Below, one piece after another: positions 15,719-27,945 of a stretch of 64,000 bases of DNA (positions are counted from its first letter, which is position 1; the number at the start of each line of letters is the position of its first letter). Source of the DNA: Candidatus Uhrbacteria bacterium (GTDB lineage: Bacteria; Patescibacteriota; Patescibacteriia; JACRJV01). Under the pieces are notes generated by a model that was given only the letters and a program-made list of their open reading frames with translations, did no database searches and was not told where the DNA came from. The position numbers and the translations under genes were made by a program. The stretch spans positions 16,090 to 80,089 of the forward strand of contig JACRJV010000027.1 of assembly GCA_016215325.1 (NCBI GenBank), written 5' to 3'.

Positions 15719-17107
15719 CTACTTATAGAACAACAGCGGGTTCAACCGTTGGCTTCCTTTGAGTACTTCAAAGTGGAGATGCGGCCCCGTCGATCGGCCG
15801 GTGGAGCCCACCAGGGCGATCACCTGTCCTTTGGCAACAGAATCACCCGCCTTAACTAAGAGTTTGCTCGAGTGCGCATAGCGCGTGAGGCTTCCGTTAT
15901 TATGCTTGACGATGACTTGCAGCCCATACCCCCCGCGGTTCCACCCTGCTAATGCCACGGTTCCGCTGTCAGCCGCATAAATAGGGGATCCTTTCGACCC
16001 TTTAATATCCAGTCCCGTATGCCGGCTTCCGCGGAAGTATTGGTTGATTTTTCGGCTGACGGTTGGCCATACTAATCCCACGATGTTACTGACATCCAGC
16101 CCCTTTGGGATCTGCGTGATAACCGGTTCGGATGTGCGGACCTTTGTGTTGGCGGGTCGCGTGGTAGCCACCACATGACCACGGGGGATAACAATCGTCG
16201 CCCCGGCCACGAGGCCATCGTCGCTCAAGGCATTGTAGGATTGAATCTCTTGAACATCGCTATTGGTAGACTTTGCGATCCGCGACAACGTATCGCCTTT
16301 TTTGACGATATATGAAATTCCGGATGTCGGCAGAATCTTCAAAATTTGACCAGGCCGAATCACACTATAGGCGCCCAAAGAATTTTCCCACAGTACCGTA
16401 TTGATCGAAATGCCAAACCGCTCGGCAATGGAACTCACCGTATCCCCATCGGTCACCACATATTCGATGGTGTTTTTACGGGTAGGGCCGATTGGTGCAG
16501 GGGGAATGATATCGCTACCCGGCAAACTCAACGGACTTTCGATCCCGGCATATTGTTCATCCGTAAAGTCACCCCCTTCATCCCCACCATTAGATGTTTC
16601 CTCATCGTATACGAACAAGTCGAGCAGTTCGGGATCAACCGCGCTCAAGTCTTCGCTCATGCTGTTGCCGGCGGGTTGGAGAATCGGCAGGGAAGAATCT
16701 TGGATGAGCGGCGTTGTCGGTTGAGGACGCAGAATTTGTGCGACAATATTCGGTTGCGCCGTGGGCGCCGTTGTTTGGTCTGACGCAAATAATACTCCGC
16801 GCGTACCCACAAGTGCCACTAACACCACCGCCCCTTGTACCAGCATCCGTTTTGGGCTCCAGAGGCTGGACATGGTATTGGAGCTATGGACAGATGATCG
16901 GATCATTTTGATCCCGGCGCTTCCGAATACAAACACGCGCACAAGCAACCGCTTGAGCATTGGCATTGCCCATCCAAAACTCCATCCAATGAATCGAATG
17001 AGTCGACGCACGCTTCCGCCAACGGCATGAATCATCATCAGCAGACTGCGTAGCGCCAGTGATTTGAGGGATCGAGACATGGGATTGTCTTTAAACGCCG
17101 AAACCAC
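15719..17107 (-). CDS. M23-family peptidoglycan metalloendopeptidase with LysM domains and an N-terminal membrane anchor
   Basis: LysM (YIVKKGDTLSRIAK); M23 motifs HTGLDI...GSTGRSTGPHLHFEV. Confidence 0.88.
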   Translation of the reverse strand: MVSAFKDNPMSRSLKSLALRSLLMMIHAVGGSVRRLIRFIGWSFGWAMPMLKRLLVRVFVFGSAGIKMIRSSVHSSNTMSSLWSPKRMLVQGAVVLVALVGTRGVLFASDQTTAPTAQPNIVAQILRPQPTTPLIQDSSLPILQPAGNSMSEDLSAVDPELLDLFVYDEETSNGGDEGGDFTDEQYAGIESPLSLPGSDIIPPAPIGPTRKNTIEYVVTDGDTVSSIAERFGISINTVLWENSLGAYSVIRPGQILKILPTSGISYIVKKGDTLSRIAKSTNSDVQEIQSYNALSDDGLVAGATIVIPRGHVVATTRPANTKVRTSEPVITQIPKGLDVSNIVGLVWPTVSRKINQYFRGSRHTGLDIKGSKGSPIYAADSGTVALAGWNRGGYGLQVIVKHNNGSLTRYAHSSKLLVKAGDSVAKGQVIALVGSTGRSTGPHLHFEVLKGSQRLNPLLFYK

Positions 17108-17305: not shown

Positions 17306-20300
17306 ATGTCCCAAGAGAGCCAAAAGTACAATCATGGAGAAATAGAGGAAAAGTGGCAGAAGCAATGGGTCGATCAGGGCATCTATCAACAGTACGATCG
17401 ACCGGAAAAGTTTTACGCGTTGGACATGTTCCCATACCCGTCCGGGGCGGGACTGCATGTCGGCCACCCCAAAGGCTATATTGCGACAGACGTGTTTACG
17501 CGCATGAAGATGCTCCAGGGCAAGAGCGTGTTGCACCCCATGGGGTGGGATGCTTTTGGATTGCCGGCCGAAAATTACGCGATTAAAAATAAGGTGCACC
17601 CCGCCAAGGCCGTTGCGGAGAACATCGTCGTGTTTAAACAGCAGCTCCAAAAAATCGGTTTTACGTATGATTGGGATCGCGAAGTGAATACCACTGATCC
17701 CGCGTATTATCGTTGGACGCAATGGATTTTTCTTAAGCTGTTTGAACACGGGCTTGCGTACGAAGCCGACGAACCCATCAACTGGTGCCCGTCGTGCAAG
17801 ACCGGGCTTGCCAATGAGGACCTGGAAGACGGCAAATGCGAACGGTGCAGCAGTGTCGTTGAGCAGAAGAAAATGCGGCAATGGAAATTGCGCATGACGG
17901 CGTATGCGGATCGGTTGCTCGAAGACTTAGACAAGACCAAGCTCCAGTGGGAAGAATCGATTAGAATCCAGCAACGCAATTGGATTGGCAGGAGTGAAGG
18001 GGCTATTGTAAAATTTTCAATTTCTCCGCCCAAGGCGGATCCGCCTCTGGCGGACAATTTCCAATTTCCAATTGACGTCTTCACCACCCGCATTGATACG
18101 ATTTTTTCTGGCACCTTTTTAGTGTTGGCTCCGGAGCATGAGTTCGTGGACGCAGTAAAGGAGCATATTCAGAATTGGAATGAAGTGGAAACATATCGTC
18201 AAACACTCCAAACCGTTTCTTTGATTGACCGCACTTCTGCAGGGCGAGAAATCACTGGTATTGAACTCAAAGGCATCACCGCGATCAATCCCGCGACCAA
18301 AGAATCGATGCCAGTCTGGATTGCCGATTTTGTATTGGCGCAATACGGTACGGGAGCTGTCTTTGCCGATGCGCACGATACTCGAGATTTTGCAATGGCA
18401 AAAAAATATCGTATTCCACTCAAGGTTTCTATCCAACCAGAGGATCCTGCATTGCTTGAGCAAGTGAAGGCCCTTGCTGTGTGTTATCCCGGCGAAGGAA
18501 AATTATTTAACTCCCAGCAGTTTGATGGAATGACTTCTGCTCAAGCGCGTCCAAAGATCGTTGAGTGGTTGTCGCAACAAGGGAGCGCGAAACCCACCGT
18601 CAACTACAAAATGCGCGACTGGGTGTTTAGCCGTCAACGGTATTGGGGCGAGCCGATCCCGCTCATTCATTGCGAACAATGCAAGAAGAAAAAATATCAA
18701 TATGTGTTTATCCATGGATTCACTGGGAGCTCTCAGGGTGTGTTTTTCCCGTGGCTTGCGCAAGAACTAAAACGTCAAGGACACACAGTGTTCTGCCCCG
18801 ATCTCCCCAACACCGAACATCCCAACATTCAAGAGCAAGTGGAATATATTTTGGACAATACCGCAATCAACGAAGACACGATCCTCGTCGGCCACAGTCT
18901 TGGGGGGGTTGTCATGATGAAATTATTAGAGCAGATCTCGGGCAGTGTCCGGCGCGCGGTATTTGTCGATCCGGTGGTATCCAAGACATTTAATGACCAT
19001 GCTCGGCCAGACGTGGAAAAGAGTAATGATTGGAAATTTGATTATGCAAAAATAAAATCAAACATTCGAGAAGTTGTTGTGTTGGCAGACGCTCGGCATC
19101 CTATTATTCGCGTCGAGGATATTGAGAAATTGCGAACAGTCTTGAATGCAAACCAGACGATCACCGTGCATCCGGAAGCAGACCATTTTACCGCCTCTCA
19201 AGAACCGGAAATTTTGCGGGCGATTGACAGCATCGGCACCATTGCGTTGTCGGAAGACGAGTTGCCGCTGAAATTGCCTGAGGTCGAGAAGTATGAACCC
19301 ACCGGCACGGGCGAATCACCGCTAGCGGGTATCCCTGAATGGGTGAATACAACGTGCCCGCAGTGCGGTGGGGCAGCCCGGCGCGAGACCAATACGATGC
19401 CGCAATGGGCAGGATCCAGTTGGTACTACCTCCGGTATATTGATCCGCGTAATGGTGCCGCACTGGTTGATTTGAACAAAGAAAAAGAATGGATGCCCGT
19501 CGATCTCTATGTCGGTGGCGCAGAGCATGCCACGCGACATTTGCTGTATGCGCGGTTTTGGCATAAGTTCTTGTATGATATTGGCTCGGTATCGACTATC
19601 GAACCCTTCAAGCGATTGATCAATGTCGGCCTTATCCTTGCCGAGGATGGCCGTAAGATGAGCAAGCGGTGGAGCAACGTCATTAATCCGGACGATATTA
19701 TCGAACACTACGGCGCAGACAGCTTGCGCTTGTACGAAATGTTCATGGGGCCGTTTACGCAAAGTATCGCGTGGAGCACCGATGGCGTTAAAGGTGTGCG
19801 GCGATTTTTGGATCGTGTCTGGAATTTGAAAGAGCGAACTCTGAACCCTAAACTCTCTACCCTGAACCCTAATATCGATCGCCTCCTCCACCAAACCATT
19901 AAAAAAGTCACGGACGACATCGAGGGTTTTAGATTTAATACCGCCGTATCTCAAATGATGATTTTAGTCAACGCAATGGAAAAAGCCGATTCTCTGCCCC
20001 TATCTCAATTCTCTATCTTGCTATTGTTGCTCAGCCCGTTCGCTCCGCACATGGCCGAAGAGTTGTGGCACCAGCTGGGAAACTCGGAATCGATTTTCGA
20101 AGCGCAGTGGCCACAGTACGATCCATCGCTTGCCAAAGAAAGCGAAGTGGAATTTGTGGTGCAGGTCAATGGCAAGGTGCGCGATCGGTTCGCGATTCCC
20201 GTGGGACTGCCAGAAGTCCAAGTCATTGCGCAATCGTTAGAACGCGATGCGGTCAGGGGGTGGCTGGAAGGCAAGCAAATCCGCAAGAAAATTTTTGTGC

Positions 20301-20332
20301 AGGATACGTTATTGAATATCGTCGTCTCATAA
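17306..20332 (+). CDS. leuS: Leucyl-tRNA synthetase carrying an inserted alpha/beta-hydrolase domain
   Basis: HIGH motif (HVGHPKGY), KMSKR motif, CP1 editing domain; 1008 aa, about 190 aa longer than typical LeuS. Confidence 0.92.
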   Translation: MSQESQKYNHGEIEEKWQKQWVDQGIYQQYDRPEKFYALDMFPYPSGAGLHVGHPKGYIATDVFTRMKMLQGKSVLHPMGWDAFGLPAENYAIKNKVHPAKAVAENIVVFKQQLQKIGFTYDWDREVNTTDPAYYRWTQWIFLKLFEHGLAYEADEPINWCPSCKTGLANEDLEDGKCERCSSVVEQKKMRQWKLRMTAYADRLLEDLDKTKLQWEESIRIQQRNWIGRSEGAIVKFSISPPKADPPLADNFQFPIDVFTTRIDTIFSGTFLVLAPEHEFVDAVKEHIQNWNEVETYRQTLQTVSLIDRTSAGREITGIELKGITAINPATKESMPVWIADFVLAQYGTGAVFADAHDTRDFAMAKKYRIPLKVSIQPEDPALLEQVKALAVCYPGEGKLFNSQQFDGMTSAQARPKIVEWLSQQGSAKPTVNYKMRDWVFSRQRYWGEPIPLIHCEQCKKKKYQYVFIHGFTGSSQGVFFPWLAQELKRQGHTVFCPDLPNTEHPNIQEQVEYILDNTAINEDTILVGHSLGGVVMMKLLEQISGSVRRAVFVDPVVSKTFNDHARPDVEKSNDWKFDYAKIKSNIREVVVLADARHPIIRVEDIEKLRTVLNANQTITVHPEADHFTASQEPEILRAIDSIGTIALSEDELPLKLPEVEKYEPTGTGESPLAGIPEWVNTTCPQCGGAARRETNTMPQWAGSSWYYLRYIDPRNGAALVDLNKEKEWMPVDLYVGGAEHATRHLLYARFWHKFLYDIGSVSTIEPFKRLINVGLILAEDGRKMSKRWSNVINPDDIIEHYGADSLRLYEMFMGPFTQSIAWSTDGVKGVRRFLDRVWNLKERTLNPKLSTLNPNIDRLLHQTIKKVTDDIEGFRFNTAVSQMMILVNAMEKADSLPLSQFSILLLLLSPFAPHMAEELWHQLGNSESIFEAQWPQYDPSLAKESEVEFVVQVNGKVRDRFAIPVGLPEVQVIAQSLERDAVRGWLEGKQIRKKIFVQDTLLNIVVS
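18683..19258 (+). other. In-frame inserted RBBP9/YdeN-like serine hydrolase domain within LeuS, between the CEQC and CPQC halves of the zinc knuckle
   Basis: YVFIHGF...FPWL...VGHSLGG...ADHF pattern of PF06821-like alpha/beta hydrolases; lower GC than the flanking leuS sequence. Confidence 0.7.
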
Positions 20333-20370: not shown

Positions 20371-20402
20371 AAAACACCGCTATCATCAGCGGTGTTTTTT
20401 GG
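20371..20402 (+). terminator. Rho-independent terminator after leuS
   Basis: AAAAACACCGCTATCATCAGCGGTGTTTTTT hairpin plus T-tract. Confidence 0.8.
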
Positions 20403-20499
20403 TATTAATTGAGGATTTGACGGAAACGGTGCGGGCCAGTAGGATCCCCGATAGTAGCTTCATACAAGAAGGAACCACGACATGGGAGGAGGTGACCTC

Positions 20500-20718
20500 A
20501 TGAAATTCCTTCTCACGGCCGTGTTATTCGGTGCCCTGTGTGCCGCGCTTTTTGCGCTGGGCACATGGCTGGCGTTTTGCGACCGGCTGGGCCGACTGGG
20601 GGCGTGGGTCCGCGACTTCCCCCTCAATGTCTTCCTGGCATTGGCGTGGATCGCGGTCCTGCCGGTGCGAGCGTTGCGCTATGTGATGGCGCTGGCTCGT
20701 GACGGGATTGAGTGGTAA
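20500..20718 (+). CDS. Small two-helix membrane protein, first gene of GC-rich segment A
   Basis: RBS GGAGGAGGTGA 6 nt upstream of the ATG; two hydrophobic helices; GC about 62%. Confidence 0.45.
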   Translation: MKFLLTAVLFGALCAALFALGTWLAFCDRLGRLGAWVRDFPLNVFLALAWIAVLPVRALRYVMALARDGIEW

Positions 20719-21012
20719 CTTCAACTTGCACGCAGAGTGGCTCCACTGGCCCTCACGAGGGATGCGCGCATCGACGATAAGGATGAGGAGGAACGGATGA
20801 AAAGACCGCAAACGGAACGCCGTGTCCGCAGCGATGGACGCGACGTGATCATATGTGTGGATTCGGACCCGCGGCGGCGGGGCCGAATGGGCGCGATCCT
20901 GGAGAAGGATTCGCGAAGCTCCGATCACCGCGAGGTGATCGGGATCCAATCGCTGGAGCCGGGGTTGCTGGAGAGCGAGCGGCTTCGGGCGCTGATCTTC
21001 AACATCATTTTC

Positions 21013-21051
21013 GCGGCCGGCACAGGGGTTCCCTCCCTCTGTTCCGGCCGC
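21013..21051. repeat. 39-nt palindromic repeat GCGGCCGGCACAGGGGTTCCCTCCCTCTGTTCCGGCCGC, copy 1
   Basis: Exact copy at about 22284-22322; stem of about 12 bp, then a T-rich tail. Confidence 0.7.
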
Positions 21052-21088
21052 TGCTTATTTTTGGGGATTAATGAGGACCGAATCGTTC

Positions 21089-21190
21089 GAGTCATCCTGA
21101 GCCCAAGCCAAGGATCTTACCGTTGAGGATTCCCCGCCTCGGGCGGGATCCCGCTGCGGCGGGACTTCGGCTCATGGCCTCAGAATGACG
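21089..21190 (+). other. Structured element of about 100 nt: long inverted repeat GTCATCCTGAG...CTCAGAATGAC enclosing two tandem GC hairpins
   Basis: Inner hairpins CCCGCC-TCG-GGCGGG and CCCGC-TGCG-GCGGG; followed by a T-run; no match to known RNA families. Confidence 0.35.
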
Positions 21191-21317
21191 ACTTTTTCAC
21201 AGCAAACGCGTACGTCCGGCGCAATAGCGTGTCGGCAGTTTTTTGTTTGTTTGACAAGGGGGGGGTGCAGTTTGCTAGCATAGGGCGACCATCAACATCG
21301 TGGAGAGGAGGACTACT

Positions 21318-21701
21318 TTGAAAATTGCGTGCGTGGGCTTCAAGGCCGAATTCGTCGTGCGCTTGCGCGACCATGGACTCAACGAGGAATTCCAGGATCC
21401 AGGGATCGTCTACGATTATGTCGACGATTCGACCACCGCGGCGCATCGAGGGACGCTGGAAGGGGCCGACCTGGTGCTTGCCACGTCCGGCAGCGCCATC
21501 AGTTTGATTGCCGATGCCAAACGGCATCGTGTGGCTGATCGCCTGGTGGTGATTACCAAGGACACCGCTGATCCCAATGCGCAGTTCGTGGTAGAGACTA
21601 CGGGCGGAACGACCTTTGTCTGGACGGACAAGGTCACCCACCCGCGCGATCTGGCCAAGCATGCGCGGATCCATCTGGAGAAGATTCGCCGCAACGGCTG
21701 A
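21318..21701 (+). CDS. Hypothetical protein in GC-rich segment A
   Basis: Strong RBS GGAGAGGAGGA 5 nt before a TTG start (alternative GTG at 21300); GC about 60%. Confidence 0.5.
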   Translation: MKIACVGFKAEFVVRLRDHGLNEEFQDPGIVYDYVDDSTTAAHRGTLEGADLVLATSGSAISLIADAKRHRVADRLVVITKDTADPNAQFVVETTGGTTFVWTDKVTHPRDLAKHARIHLEKIRRNG

Positions 21702-21797
21702 CAACCATCACCAGCGCGCAGAGGCTTTGCGTTCCGTCAGACGATGGGGCGGATGCTTCGCGAGGGATGCGTGCTTCTACCGAAATAGGAGGCAATC

Positions 21798-22265
21798 ATG
21801 CCGAGACCCCCTAAGGGTTGTAAGCAGGACCACTCGAGCGGCTGGTGGCTGCTCAACTTTGACAGCGATCCCGTCTTCCGGGGTCGCATTGACACGTTCG
21901 GCCACCTGGCGATGGGTGGCATGGACTACAACCGCAAGGATTCCGCTGACGTGGCGTTGGCGATCGCTGATGGTCGCCTCAAGAGCGCAACGCTCTGCTT
22001 CATTCCGGTGGAGCTTGGCGAAGCGGACTTGGGGCGCCTGCTGGCCGAGGCCAAGGTGCAGGGCTCCGCCAACCGCTGCGTGATCACCTACTTCGCGGCG
22101 GACCGCGACAAGGAGCACGCCGAATTCTGGGCCGGCAAGTTCGGTTCCGTCGCGCTTCACAAGAACATGGAGTCGACCGAGCCCAGCGCTGAAGCCTTCT
22201 TCAAGGCCGCCAGCAAGCAGCGCGAGAAGGCTGCCCTCCAGGGCGGCATGGGCTGCACGATCTGA
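21798..22265 (+). CDS. Hypothetical protein in GC-rich segment A
   Basis: RBS AGGAGG 6 nt before the ATG; 155 aa. Confidence 0.55.
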   Translation: MPRPPKGCKQDHSSGWWLLNFDSDPVFRGRIDTFGHLAMGGMDYNRKDSADVALAIADGRLKSATLCFIPVELGEADLGRLLAEAKVQGSANRCVITYFAADRDKEHAEFWAGKFGSVALHKNMESTEPSAEAFFKAASKQREKAALQGGMGCTI

Positions 22266-22283
22266 TTCCTCGGTTCACATTCA

Positions 22284-22322
22284 GCGGCCGGCACAGGGGT
22301 TCCCTCCCTCTGTTCCGGCCGC
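22284..22322. repeat. 39-nt palindromic repeat, copy 2, immediately after the stop of 21798..22265
   Basis: Identical to 21013-21051. Confidence 0.7.
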
Positions 22323-27609: not shown

Positions 27610-27677
27610 GCCCCCGTAGATCACGGTAGATCGTCCGCTCAACACGCGGGAGGTAGGGTTCAATTCCCCCGGGGGCT
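27610..27677 (+). pseudogene. tRNA-like element 1 (atypical; possibly a degenerate tRNA)
   Basis: Perfect 7-bp acceptor stem (GCCCCCG/CGGGGGC), D-arm GATC-ACGGTA-GATC, T-loop GGTTCAATTCC; but a weak T-stem and an anticodon loop TCAACAC with no U33. Confidence 0.3.
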
Positions 27678-27684
27678 CCGAATC

Positions 27685-27753
27685 CGCTCGCGTAGCTCAA
27701 CGTAGAGCGGCCCGACAACATCGGGCAGACGCGGTTCGAGTCCGCACGCGGGC
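27685..27753 (+). pseudogene. tRNA-like element 2 (atypical; possibly a degenerate tRNA)
   Basis: Acceptor GCTCGCG/CGCGGGC, D-arm TAGCTCAACGTAGAGC, anticodon stem GCCCG/CGGGC, T-arm CGCGGTTCGAGTCCGCA; anticodon loop ACAACAT is non-canonical. Confidence 0.3.
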
Positions 27754-27945
27754 ATCACCTCCACTCCCCGCATTCTGCGGGGCAAACCGGCTGGGGAGAG
27801 TGTCGTTCGCCTCATCGCGAACAACTCTCCCTGGCCGCCCTCCCTCAAAAACAAATCACTCTATAAAAGATAAAAATAAATTATTTTTGTGCACCCTCTT
27901 GACAGTGCAATTGAATTCCCATAAACTCGTCTGTTATACTAGGTC

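Follow-up and report, generated by a model that had tools for sequence, protein, structure and literature searches.

A YdeN/RBBP9-type serine hydrolase inside the second zinc knuckle of a leucyl-tRNA synthetase and its association with LeuRS in CPR and DPANN

The window (the whole stretch of 64,000 nucleotides that was analysed) comes from an Uhrbacteria (CPR) genome and contains a leuS gene for a bacterial-type leucyl-tRNA synthetase (LeuRS) whose second Cys4 zinc knuckle encloses a complete YdeN/RBBP9-type serine hydrolase. This confirms the placement proposed in an earlier note on this DNA. At least 61 GTDB species representatives carry the hydrolase inside LeuRS, at the same site (site A) or at a second one (site B), and the link between the two proteins is also seen in the gene neighbourhoods of stand-alone relatives of the domain.

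The leuS gene, its upstream neighbour and the parts of the synthetase are as follows (residue numbers are those of the window LeuRS).

15719..17107, minus strand: LysM-LysM-M23 peptidase gene, upstream of leuS, the synteny anchor
17306..20332, plus strand: leuS ORF with the nested hydrolase inside, complete bacterial-type LeuRS of 1008 aa
17456..17467, plus strand: HIGH motif, present as HVGH (aa 51-54), intact in 31/31 site-A relatives
17786..17848, plus strand: ZN-1 Cys4 module (C161, C164, C178, C181)
17975..18571, plus strand: CP1 editing domain, aa 224-422 (PF13603, 1e-48)
18026..18070, plus strand: loop PPKADPPLADNFQFP, aa 241-255, referred to as site B, of low model confidence (pLDDT 63)
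18671..18682, plus strand: CEQC (C456, C459), first half of the second zinc knuckle, equivalent to C439/C442 of Thermus thermophilus LeuRS
19355..19366, plus strand: CPQC (C684, C687), second half of this knuckle, equivalent to T. thermophilus C484/C487
19655..19669, plus strand: KMSKS motif, present as KMSKR (aa 784-788), with EDGR just before
19880..20218, plus strand: anticodon-binding domain, aa 859-971 (PF08264, 6.5e-24)

The ORF runs in a single uninterrupted frame from an ATG start to a TAA stop, and its product belongs to TIGR00396 (leuS_bact), where it scores 960.9 bits (cutoff 548.4). The AF2 model of the whole protein has a pLDDT of 89.8 and a pTM of 0.85, and a TM score of 0.74 is obtained when it is compared with E. 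coli LeuRS-tRNA complexes. The CP1 domain is inserted after ZN-1, has the T-rich motif and the conserved Asp residues, and shows no damage to the editing motifs (TTRIDT at 260-265, GTG at 348-350 and HDTRD at 357-361). The four cysteines of the second knuckle (CCCC) are kept in 31/31 site-A relatives. A leucine-specific domain precedes the KMSKS motif in most, but not all, LeuRS; in the alignment, the window protein has no counterpart of T. thermophilus residues 580-637, with EDGR instead. The LeuRS of Mycoplasma mobile is likewise reported to be without this domain, having GKDG in its place (PMC3643597). With its HIGH and KMSKS motifs, zinc modules, CP1 and anticodon-binding domain intact, the product of the window gene is a fully equipped class Ia LeuRS. 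By the LysM-LysM-M23 synteny, the gene is orthologous to leuS of relatives both with and without the insert, and leucylation by the window enzyme is predicted from the intact motifs and from this orthology with plain leuS.

The insert occupies the space between the two halves of the second knuckle.

18683..19234, plus strand: nested YdeN/RBBP9-type alpha/beta serine hydrolase domain, aa 460-643, 184 aa

Its bounds are fixed exactly by a 120-sequence alignment, and the linkers that join it to the host are very short (about 4 aa on the N-terminal side, about 3 aa on the C-terminal side). The spacing from CEQC (456-459) to CPQC (684-687) is 224 residues, as compared with 41 residues in T. thermophilus LeuRS (C442 to C484) and about 40 in plain CPR relatives, in agreement with the value of about 40 that the earlier note gave for canonical LeuS. 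The family assignment made there is borne out by the profile searches: the insert scores 34.9 bits with the Ser_hydrolase profile PF06821 (38.7 bits when searched alone; gathering cutoff 22) and 44.7 bits with Abhydrolase_1 (Pfam gathering cutoff 25.8), and Abhydrolase_6 is also above its Pfam gathering threshold. The profile matches are restricted to alpha/beta-hydrolase families, with none of the known editing folds among them. The best solved relative is Bacillus subtilis YdeN (PDB entry: 1uxo), with E = 3.8e-9. When modelled alone with AF2 (pLDDT 96.8), the insert has the minimal alpha/beta-hydrolase fold, with TM scores of 0.83 to 1uxo and to the 2qs9 and 7oex structures of human RBBP9. 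The short linkers, together with the pTM of the whole model, suggest that the predicted orientation of the domain on the LeuRS body is fixed.

The insert is under purifying selection, as dN is 0.29 for the insert versus 0.33 and 0.25 for two host segments (dS is saturated), and its identity to the nearest relatives is 65-69%, with 62-73% for the host. The GC content of the insert is lower than that of the rest of leuS (0.466 versus 0.504, about the 3rd percentile among same-length gene segments), as had been noticed earlier, but this difference lies within the gene's own range and is weak evidence of foreign origin. The separate acquisition that had been read from it is instead shown by the phylogeny and by a syntenic insert-free orthologue. 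An intein was considered and rejected, in accordance with the earlier description of an in-frame, non-intein insert: the domain begins with KKKK and ends with DSI followed by G, and it has no Hint domain, no Cys, Ser or Thr at the N junction and no His-Asn plus nucleophile at the C junction; unlike an intein, it stays in the mature protein. Its likeness to inteins and other in-frame mobile insertions lies in its occurrence in conserved essential proteins (aaRS, SecA, UvrA), its patchy distribution and one clean loss. A transposon- or MITE-like insertion was also rejected, since there are no target-site duplications or terminal inverted repeats, only short chance repeats, none of which flanks the junctions.

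The YVFIHGF, FPWL, VGHSLGG and ADHF motifs listed in the earlier note are all present, and the following features describe the predicted active site as seen across 180 copies of the domain.

18713..18718, plus strand: HG oxyanion-hole motif (H470-G471), His in 175/180 copies
18890..18907, plus strand: nucleophile elbow GHSLGG with Ser531 at 18896-18898, Ser in 177/180 copies
18968..18970, plus strand: Asp555, right after the beta-strand of aa 548-554, putative relocated catalytic acid
18989..19042, plus strand: FNDHARP (FxDxxRP, aa 562-568) and DWxFD (aa 575-579), the signature of the LeuRS-associated subfamily
19097..19099, plus strand: His598, at the canonical catalytic-acid position, aligned with Asp138 of RBBP9
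19184..19189, plus strand: catalytic His627 followed by Phe628 (ADHF), His in 180/180 copies

YdeN and the window domain are both minimal alpha/beta-hydrolases of about 180 aa (rmsd 2.4 A), and the HG motif, GHSxG and the catalytic His occur in both. In YdeN, which stands alone, the canonical Asp follows strand 7 and the FxDxxRP/DWxFD signature is missing, whereas the window domain is nested in LeuRS, carries this signature, which probably forms a substrate lid, and has His598 in combination with Asp555. RBBP9 has the same fold with 18% identity (E = 0.004); its Glu108 corresponds to an Ala. The canonical Asp after strand 7 is absent from the window domain, and in its main site-A clade 24 of the 27 members have F, H, R, Y or A at this position. 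No member of this clade departs from Ser531, His627 or the HG motif, and Asp555 is likewise invariant (27/27), at a position that is mostly Ala elsewhere. Across the 180 copies, the acid is at the canonical position only in 152, at 555 only in 25 and at both in 3, and no copy is without either; judged by their sequences, the three copies with both acids look like intermediates. From this pattern it appears that Asp555 has taken over the role of the usual acid, and we infer that the window domain is competent for catalysis and uses Ser531-His627-Asp555 as its triad.

The hydrolase is found nested at three LeuRS sites: site A is the second zinc knuckle, as in the window LeuRS, site B lies 2-3 residues before the TTRPDT editing motif of CP1, and site C lies 17 residues after HDxRD. 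The site-B loop hosts a hydrolase, NUDIX or Ham1 domain in other CPR and DPANN LeuRS. Among the 80 loci found in a scan of GTDB genomes there are 14 site-A and 47 site-B LeuRS, a census biased to close relatives by the use of the narrower alignment A4, the diverse domain alignment A2 being too variable. Other proteins that contain a nested copy of this hydrolase subfamily are ValRS, AlaRS, UvrA, Der, SecA, Fmt and TsaD, with one or two linkage events per host versus at least four to five independent events for LeuRS. Insert presence is patchy on the LeuRS tree, and a clean loss is seen in P0137, a syntenic orthologue without insert. The neighbour-joining trees of domain and host have very short internal branches and carry no support values, and are used for coarse statements only. 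A recombination breakpoint at the insert was considered when segment identities between P0123 (with insert) and P0137 seemed discontinuous. It was rejected, as nucleotide identity is similar on both sides and, in a sliding window, the difference stems from CP1 and the C-terminal domain and not from the junction; these comparisons provide no evidence for co-conversion at the insert.

The fusion initially seemed unique to the window, as an insert-only word-indexed search returned stand-alone hydrolases and LeuRS fragments; this was overturned by full-length and exhaustive HMMER searches. Public assemblies of CPR and DPANN in fact often show this architecture, and such proteins receive from JGI the automatic name 'leucyl-tRNA synthetase/predicted alpha/beta hydrolase family esterase'. 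The earlier suggestion that it is undescribed agrees with literature searches aimed at the architecture, which turned up no published description, but does not hold for the databases; a search on YdeN/PF06821/DUF1234 returned name collisions only.

Close stand-alone relatives of the domain lie upstream of plain leuS in six of eight lineages (four adjacent, one at an operon head and one at 1.35 kb), with both bacterial-type and archaeal-type leuS. In the adjacent cases the hydrolase gene is directly upstream of leuS on the same strand.

P0252: upstream of a bacterial-type LeuRS gene, 6-nt gap
P0259: upstream of a bacterial-type LeuRS gene, 36-nt gap
P0286: upstream of a gene for LeuRS with a NUDIX insert
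L041/P0260: upstream of an archaeal-type LeuRS gene
P0268: at the head of an operon with the order hydrolase, hydrolase, YbaK-like tRNA_edit, Ham1 NTPase, archaeal-type LeuRS
P0272: 1.35 kb upstream of leuS

These neighbourhoods argue for a LeuRS-linked role over an unrelated one. Remote stand-alone members are found in 'repair or house-cleaning' contexts, beside isochorismatase, RidA, DNA glycosylase and GIY-YIG genes.

The most likely explanation, although short of an even prospect, is that the insert is a dedicated LeuRS accessory enzyme that hydrolyses alpha-aminoacyl esters or thioesters bearing a free alpha-amino group. Catalysis would proceed through a Ser531 acyl-enzyme, and the conserved lid residues D564, R567, W576 and F578 would bind the adenosine or phosphate as well as the amino group; candidate substrates are incorrectly formed 3' ends of aminoacyl-tRNA(Leu) or reactive side products of aminoacyl-adenylates, and the result would be an additional proofreading or clean-up activity alongside CP1. 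The LeuRS-linked part of this proposal comes from the three nesting sites and the leuS neighbourhoods, the chemistry from analogy with RBBP9. To our knowledge, RBBP9, which is eukaryotic and stand-alone and for which we know of no tRNA synthetase link, is the sole member of the family whose activity has been defined. This serine hydrolase of the aminopeptidase type traps one hydrophobic amino acid at a time (Leu/Ile, Met, Phe, Tyr, Trp) as an acyl-enzyme and requires a free alpha-amine on the substrate (PMC8866121). It is also reported to activate valacyclovir, the valine ester of a nucleoside analogue (Shenoy 2020, cited in PMC7730578). The analogy is weakened by RBBP9 being a distant homologue, and the aminoacyl-ester role by the nesting of the same subfamily in UvrA, SecA, Der and TsaD, which do not handle aminoacyl-tRNA. 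Moreover, the CP1 motifs are intact in 118/120 LeuRS with or without the hydrolase (29/31 site-A, 12/12 site-B and 77/77 hydrolase-free), which rules out the hydrolase as a substitute for a decayed CP1, and it is not obvious why a further deacylase would be needed.

It is textbook knowledge that synthetases can contain hydrolytic editing domains, and the editing modules known to us all come from a few folds. Like the window hydrolase, these modules (CP1 of LeuRS/IleRS/ValRS, ProRS INS, YbaK, the AlaRS editing domain, AlaX, ThrRS N2) are inserted in or appended to a synthetase or encoded by free genes beside it, and in one related operon the hydrolase gene lies with YbaK-like tRNA_edit and leuS. 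The window domain differs from them by its unrelated fold, by being a putative deacylase and by the CP1 still intact beside it; by its association with LeuRS, it may be an aminoacyl-tRNA deacylase. A curated precedent for a class Ia synthetase with an extra enzymatic domain is NCBIfam NF040702, which by its family name ('isoleucine--tRNA ligase, N-acetyltransferase domain-containing') has a GNAT guest fold in another host. Somewhat doubtful is the wider view that the hydrolase is an unrecognised, fold-unrelated LeuRS quality-control module, repeatedly recruited in CPR and DPANN, which would act on aberrant aminoacyl-tRNA(Leu) or on species derived from aminoacyl-adenylates and would form a LeuRS-centred sanitising hub with its NUDIX, Ham1 and YbaK-like partners.

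An unlikely alternative is that the domain is an autonomous housekeeping esterase whose chemistry is unrelated to leucylation. In a streamlined genome, LeuRS would then offer no more than permissive surface loops and an expression that is constitutive and stoichiometric. In the same LeuRS loops, the hydrolase is interchangeable with the unrelated nucleotide hydrolases NUDIX and Ham1 or with unknown domains, which fits permissive carrier loops as well as functional coupling. The nesting in seven other proteins, the patchy distribution with the clean loss in P0137 and the varied contexts of remote stand-alone members point the same way. However, a random essential carrier predicts varied neighbours, and the unfused hydrolase is near leuS of both types in most close lineages; the excess of independent linkage events for LeuRS over any other host also speaks against it. 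Rather improbable is an RBBP9-like aminopeptidase or amino-acid-ester hydrolase, co-expressed with LeuRS, by which scavenged peptides would be made to yield leucine or other hydrophobic amino acids. This agrees with the residues trapped by RBBP9, with a partnership specific to LeuRS (ValRS and AlaRS hosts being rarer) and with CPR and DPANN organisms being generally held to lack amino-acid biosynthesis. Yet free leucine diffuses, so that rigid nesting brings no obvious kinetic gain, the YbaK-like deacylase, Ham1 and NUDIX partners belong to quality control and sanitising rather than nutrient acquisition, and the move of the catalytic acid opens no obvious path to better amide hydrolysis.

It is very unlikely that the domain of this clade has lost catalysis and now has a role in structure, tRNA binding or regulation. 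The replacement of the canonical acid in most clade members would fit such a loss, but the conservation of Ser531, His627, the HG motif and Asp555, and the presence of at least one acid in every copy, with both in three, oppose it. In addition, Asp555 is at the strand end to which, as Schrag et al. reportedly described in 1992, the catalytic acid has migrated in other alpha/beta hydrolases. An artefact, be it a chimeric assembly, a frameshift or an ORF called wrongly, has a negligible probability: no support for one was found at leuS, the single ORF and the confident model of the whole fusion argue against it, as does purifying selection on the insert, and exactly the same junctions recur in 14 GTDB genomes and in 31 homologues whose assemblies are independent (NCBI, ENA, JGI and Logan), which effectively refutes an assembly join or frameshift at the insert borders.

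In the present case, an alpha/beta serine hydrolase is tied to LeuRS by nesting at three or more positions and by conserved operon adjacency, a link that spans bacterial-type and archaeal-type LeuRS and both of the large radiations of ultra-small prokaryotic symbionts. If the domain is only carried, the LeuRS loops would serve minimal genomes as a general platform on which house-cleaning enzymes (hydrolase, NUDIX, Ham1) can dock. If the aminoacyl-ester activity is true, the domain would represent a new class of translational quality-control enzyme and would give the orphan YdeN/RBBP9 family its first physiological context.

The leuS gene of the window is a single unbroken ORF (17306..20332, + strand) coding for 1008 residues. 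The encoded protein scores 960.9 bits against TIGR00396, the curated model of bacterial leucyl-tRNA synthetase (LeuRS), for which the cutoff is 548.4, and it is identical to the database protein P0121, named leucine--tRNA ligase of Candidatus Uhrbacteria bacterium. When it is aligned with its 120 closest LeuRS proteins, the plain relatives read HCExC followed directly by GvvPVpE at a junction in the second zinc knuckle (site A), where the window protein has an extra block:

aa 456-459: CEQC, first half of the second Cys4
nt 18683-19234, + strand, aa 460-643: the extra block (insert), as delimited in the 120-sequence LeuRS alignment
aa 684-687: CPQC, second half of the second Cys4

The spacing between CEQC and CPQC is 224 residues in the window protein vs 41 residues between the equivalent cysteines (C439, C442, C484, C487) of Thermus thermophilus LeuRS, close to the 40 or so that the earlier note gave for canonical enzymes. 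In the T. thermophilus LeuRS structure, attributed to Cusack et al. in 2000, zinc is reportedly bound by these four cysteines. The HMMER alignment pairs window residues 6-459 with T. thermophilus residues 2-442 and window residues 642-779 with 441-579. The earlier note, which had placed a hydrolase inside the LeuRS zinc knuckle, was right on this point, as the insert lies between the two CxxC halves. It had also seen no intein splice residues, in agreement with the domain profile search and the junction alignment, in which no intein features were found; a junction search found no repeats flanking the insert. The lower G+C content that it described is real (0.466 vs 0.504 for the rest of leuS), but the difference is small, placing the insert near the 3rd percentile of leuS segments of equal length.

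The insert is above the Pfam gathering thresholds for Ser_hydrolase (PF06821), the family that the earlier note had proposed, and for Abhydrolase_1 and Abhydrolase_6. Of the solved structures, B. subtilis YdeN (1uxo, E = 3.8e-9) matches it best in sequence, with RBBP9 next, and the AF2 model made from just the insert (pLDDT 96.8), a complete hydrolase fold, superimposes on both with a TM of 0.83. The AF2 model of the full-length protein is confident over its whole length (mean pLDDT 89.8, pTM 0.85, insert blocks 88-98), having a TM of 0.74 when compared with the E. coli LeuRS-tRNA complexes.

The LeuRS-hydrolase fusion is real, neither an artefact nor unique. Among the 120 best LeuRS homologues, 31 have the hydrolase at the identical site-A junction, and 12 have it at site B, the loop just before the T-rich motif of the CP1 editing domain (between window residues ~240 and 256). 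A NUDIX domain is inserted within CP1 at ~residue 375 in 40 homologues, 13 of which also have the site-A hydrolase, and the rest are mostly plain proteins of ~800-846 aa. The frameshift or assembly join at the insert borders considered in the earlier note is at odds with the unbroken ORF and with the same junction in 31 homologues. When 1.84 billion cluster representatives were searched exhaustively with HMMER, the insert had 1463 matches at E <= 1e-3, and the best 150 of these are mostly LeuRS that have the domain at site A or B. The GTDB pattern scan, covering one genome per species, recovered 80 loci (14 site-A LeuRS, 47 site-B LeuRS and 19 stand-alone genes), with record titles of Magasanik-, Falkow-, Uhr-, Levy-, Berkel-, Doudna-, Kaiser-, Yanofsky- and Vogelbacteria and of Saccharibacteria; 12 bins bear labels of DPANN archaea. 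The window protein is a member of a large fusion family that is already visible in databases, where a JGI label for some members reads 'leucyl-tRNA synthetase/predicted alpha/beta hydrolase family esterase'. In ~8 million full texts, most subscription journals being outside this set, no paper on the LeuRS-hydrolase architecture was found, and the names YdeN, PF06821 and DUF1234 gave name collisions only. This silence is absence of evidence only, and the suggestion that the fusion had not been described holds for these papers but not for the databases.

The 12 DPANN-titled bins (L018, L025, L029, L032, L035, L036, L039, L045, L048, L051, L052 and L063; titles Pace-, Woese-, Iainarchaeota and 'archaeon') have the hydrolase at site B of a LeuRS that aligns to the bacterial-type window LeuRS at 39-49% identity, ending near residue 940. 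The LeuRS of L018 matches TIGR00396 with 921 bits and is the sole one of the 12 confirmed by the family model. A bacterial-type LeuRS in these bins could be due to cross-domain transfer or to mis-binning.

The link of the hydrolase to LeuRS is specific, because it is seen in nested fusions at three sites, in gene neighbourhoods and in a shared lid signature. Besides sites A and B, the domain is nested in bacterial-type LeuRS at site C (P0323), 17 residues past the HDxRD editing motif; at site B, its C-terminal junction is just 2-3 residues ahead of the TTRPDT editing motif. The LeuRS P0312 has a tandem double hydrolase (aa 20-218 and 220-418), and two hydrolase domains in tandem also make up the 350-aa protein P0256. 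The canonical Asp is retained, and Asp555 is absent, in part of the site-A inserts (P0136/P0146, P0181/P0200/P0235, P0156/P0239 and others). Their identity to the window insert is only 25-30%, compared with 35-42% for site-B inserts, and therefore site A seems, from these identities, to be occupied by more than one hydrolase lineage. The gene neighbourhoods were considered for the eight lineages of stand-alone proteins most similar to the LeuRS inserts, and leuS linkage is found in six:

P0252: followed after 6 nt by a plain bacterial-type LeuRS (809 aa), on 11 contigs
P0259: followed after 36 nt by a plain LeuRS (801 aa)
P0286: followed after 24 nt by a NUDIX-bearing LeuRS
L041/P0390 and P0260 (73% identical): followed after 12 nt and 0 nt by an archaeal-type LeuRS (TIGR00395, 928 bits)
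P0268: head of an operon of hydrolase, hydrolase, YbaK-like tRNA_edit (PF04073), Ham1-like protein and archaeal-type LeuRS
P0272: 1.35 kb upstream of leuS

The contigs of the other two, P0251 and P0248, are too short to show neighbours, and both are counted within the eight. No LeuRS was found within 4 kb at 18 more remote stand-alone loci of the GTDB scan, nor as a neighbour of P0393 or P0394. The lid signature, FxDxxRP followed by DWxFD[FWY]xKI[KR], is common to the LeuRS-associated hydrolases and absent from the remote stand-alone hydrolases and from YdeN. The operon at L094:4001-8549 (GCA_020049755.1) encodes as separate genes the same kinds of enzymes that are seen elsewhere as LeuRS inserts: hydrolases of 182 and 192 aa, a YbaK-like protein of 162 aa, a Ham1-like protein of 205 aa and an archaeal-type LeuRS.

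The host synthetase is complete. One ZN-1 variant (CDCC) aside, the window protein and 31/31 site-A relatives have preserved HIGH, KMSKS, ZN-1 Cys4 and second Cys4 motifs. In the window protein, the editing residues of CP1 (T260, T261, T265, D358 and D361, in TTRIDT and HDTRD) are also intact, as are the CP1 motifs of 29/31 site-A, 12/12 site-B and 77/77 hydrolase-free LeuRS. Because these motifs are preserved in nearly all LeuRS compared, the hydrolase is not a general stand-in for a decayed editing site. Among the 120 LeuRS, the TT..T of the T-rich motif is degenerate only in P0122 (NS..P) and P0192 (DS..T), both with a site-A hydrolase; this co-occurrence is suggestive, n=2 being too small to be significant. 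The gene order of zf-DksA-like, Mg-chelatase/ComM-like, LysM-M23 peptidase and leuS is common to the window and the locus of the insert-bearing P0123, and the short contig of P0137 retains just the LysM-M23/leuS pair. P0137 is without insert and is nested among three insert-bearing proteins in the host tree. The simplest reading takes the insert-bearing gene for the housekeeping leuS orthologue, with a clean loss of the domain in P0137.

Several other features of this gene and its surroundings were observed. The leucine-specific domain is absent from the window LeuRS and its ~800-aa CPR relatives; T. thermophilus residues 580-637 have no counterpart, and EDGR precedes KMSKR (window 19637-19675, aa 778-790). 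The EDGR resembles the GKDG of Mycoplasma mobile LeuRS described in a passage of PMC3643597. The gene is a mosaic: its identity to the nearest relatives, P0122, P0123 and P0137, is 88-89% in the catalytic core and 30-33% in CP1 (18026-18580, aa ~241-425), which is 57-62% identical to the CP1 of more distant LeuRS. The sister-lineage CP1 motifs are TTWPHT (P0123, P0137) and NSHFEP (P0122), and the mosaic would reflect either a strongly diverged CP1 in the sister lineage or an exchanged module. The loop PPKADPPLADNFQFP (window 18026-18070, aa 241-255), with an internal PPxAD repeat and a pLDDT of 63, is 10-12 aa longer than in T. thermophilus and sits exactly where other LeuRS bear hydrolase, NUDIX or Ham1; it may be a scar or merely a permissive loop. 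Directly 3' of leuS (window 20400-22300), the G+C content rises from ~0.50 to 0.60-0.65, and this stretch has just short ORFs (130-175 aa) overlapping mutually on both strands and no Rfam match. Two tandem tRNA genes (window 27610-27679 and 27686-27754, + strand), called by ARAGORN as tRNA-Val with the unusual anticodon AAC, exceed the Rfam gathering threshold when the region is scanned but were missed by the whole-window scan.

The insert is under purifying selection. Its identity to the nearest relatives is 65-69% vs 62-73% for the host segments, and its dN is 0.29 vs 0.33 and 0.25, with synonymous sites saturated. The nucleophile, the histidine and the oxyanion motif are conserved, as seen from 180 full-length domain copies, drawn from stand-alone genes, other hosts and LeuRS at sites A and B: 175 have the HG histidine, 177 the nucleophilic serine and all 180 the catalytic histidine. 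The canonical acid position, which aligns with Asp138 of RBBP9, is Asp/Glu in all site-B, other-host, 'other site-A' and unclassified longer-protein copies and in 78/79 stand-alone copies. In the main site-A clade (27 members, window included), it is Phe (15), His (3, including His598 of the window protein), Arg (3), Glu (3), Tyr (2) or Ala (1). Asp555, directly following the strand of aa 548-554, is invariant in this clade and essentially confined to it, the other groups having mostly Ala. An acid is found at 598 only in 152, at 555 only in 25, at both in 3 and at neither in 0 of the 180 phylogenetically non-independent copies. This pattern is as expected if the catalytic acid had moved to the end of the adjacent strand; such a move in other alpha/beta hydrolases, the pancreatic lipases, was reportedly described by Schrag et al. 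in 1992. Because every copy has an acid at 555 or 598, we infer from the sequences a working triad of Ser531-His627-Asp555.

As to the mechanism, Asp555 is the probable catalytic acid, and the domain probably has a fixed orientation on LeuRS, the latter since the linkers are only ~4 and 3 residues and the pTM is 0.85. By analogy with RBBP9, the substrate may be an ester or thioester of an alpha-amino acid whose amino group is free. The S75Dap variant of RBBP9 (Dap for the catalytic serine) traps single Leu/Ile, Met, Phe, Tyr or Trp and requires a free alpha-amine (PMC8866121), and RBBP9 activates valacyclovir, according to Shenoy 2020 as cited in a passage of PMC7730578. This proposal is made because of the RBBP9 chemistry and the quality-control nature of the YbaK-like, Ham1 and NUDIX partners. 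Candidate substrates would be mis-made aminoacyl-tRNA(Leu), aminoacyl-adenylates and cyclised by-products such as homocysteine thiolactone; the last is our own idea, by analogy with just BPHL, an unrelated alpha/beta hydrolase with homocysteine thiolactone activity according to a passage of PMC4198189. Rival explanations are that the domain is a leucine-supplying aminopeptidase, an autonomous esterase for which LeuRS is just a carrier, or a pseudo-enzyme. The conserved catalytic residues speak against the last, and the repeated physical and genomic link to LeuRS speaks against the carried esterase.

Clearly, LeuRS is a permissive scaffold, because the hydrolase has other hosts, the LeuRS loops have other guests, and the insert states are patchy at the tips of the host tree. 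ValRS (P0309, P0360, P0322) hosts this hydrolase subfamily in two places, of which one is homologous with site A of LeuRS, and further nested hosts are AlaRS (P0311), methionyl-tRNA formyltransferase (P0341), TsaD (P0307), Der (P0288), SecA (P0274) and UvrA (P0368); the majority of the essential non-LeuRS hosts, not all, are tRNA-binding. In CPR LeuRS, NUDIX guests are found at ~residue 210, site B, ~375, site C and ~840, and a Ham1-like NTPase at site B; P0228 at site A and P0131 at ~residue 720 have unidentified domains of 145-200 aa. The CPR LeuRS with other guests also include P0143, P0163, P0128, P0127, P0192, P0207, P0189 and P0220, and some CPR LeuRS hold two or three guests, reaching 1321 aa. 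Part of the LeuRS-hydrolase pattern may reflect scaffold permissiveness alone. What is new here is a partnership specific to LeuRS, formed through fusions as well as operons and involving LeuRS of both bacterial and archaeal type; an apparent shift of the catalytic acid to another position in sequences of the main site-A clade; and, in a wider picture, the view that LeuRS in CPR and DPANN accommodates house-cleaning hydrolases.
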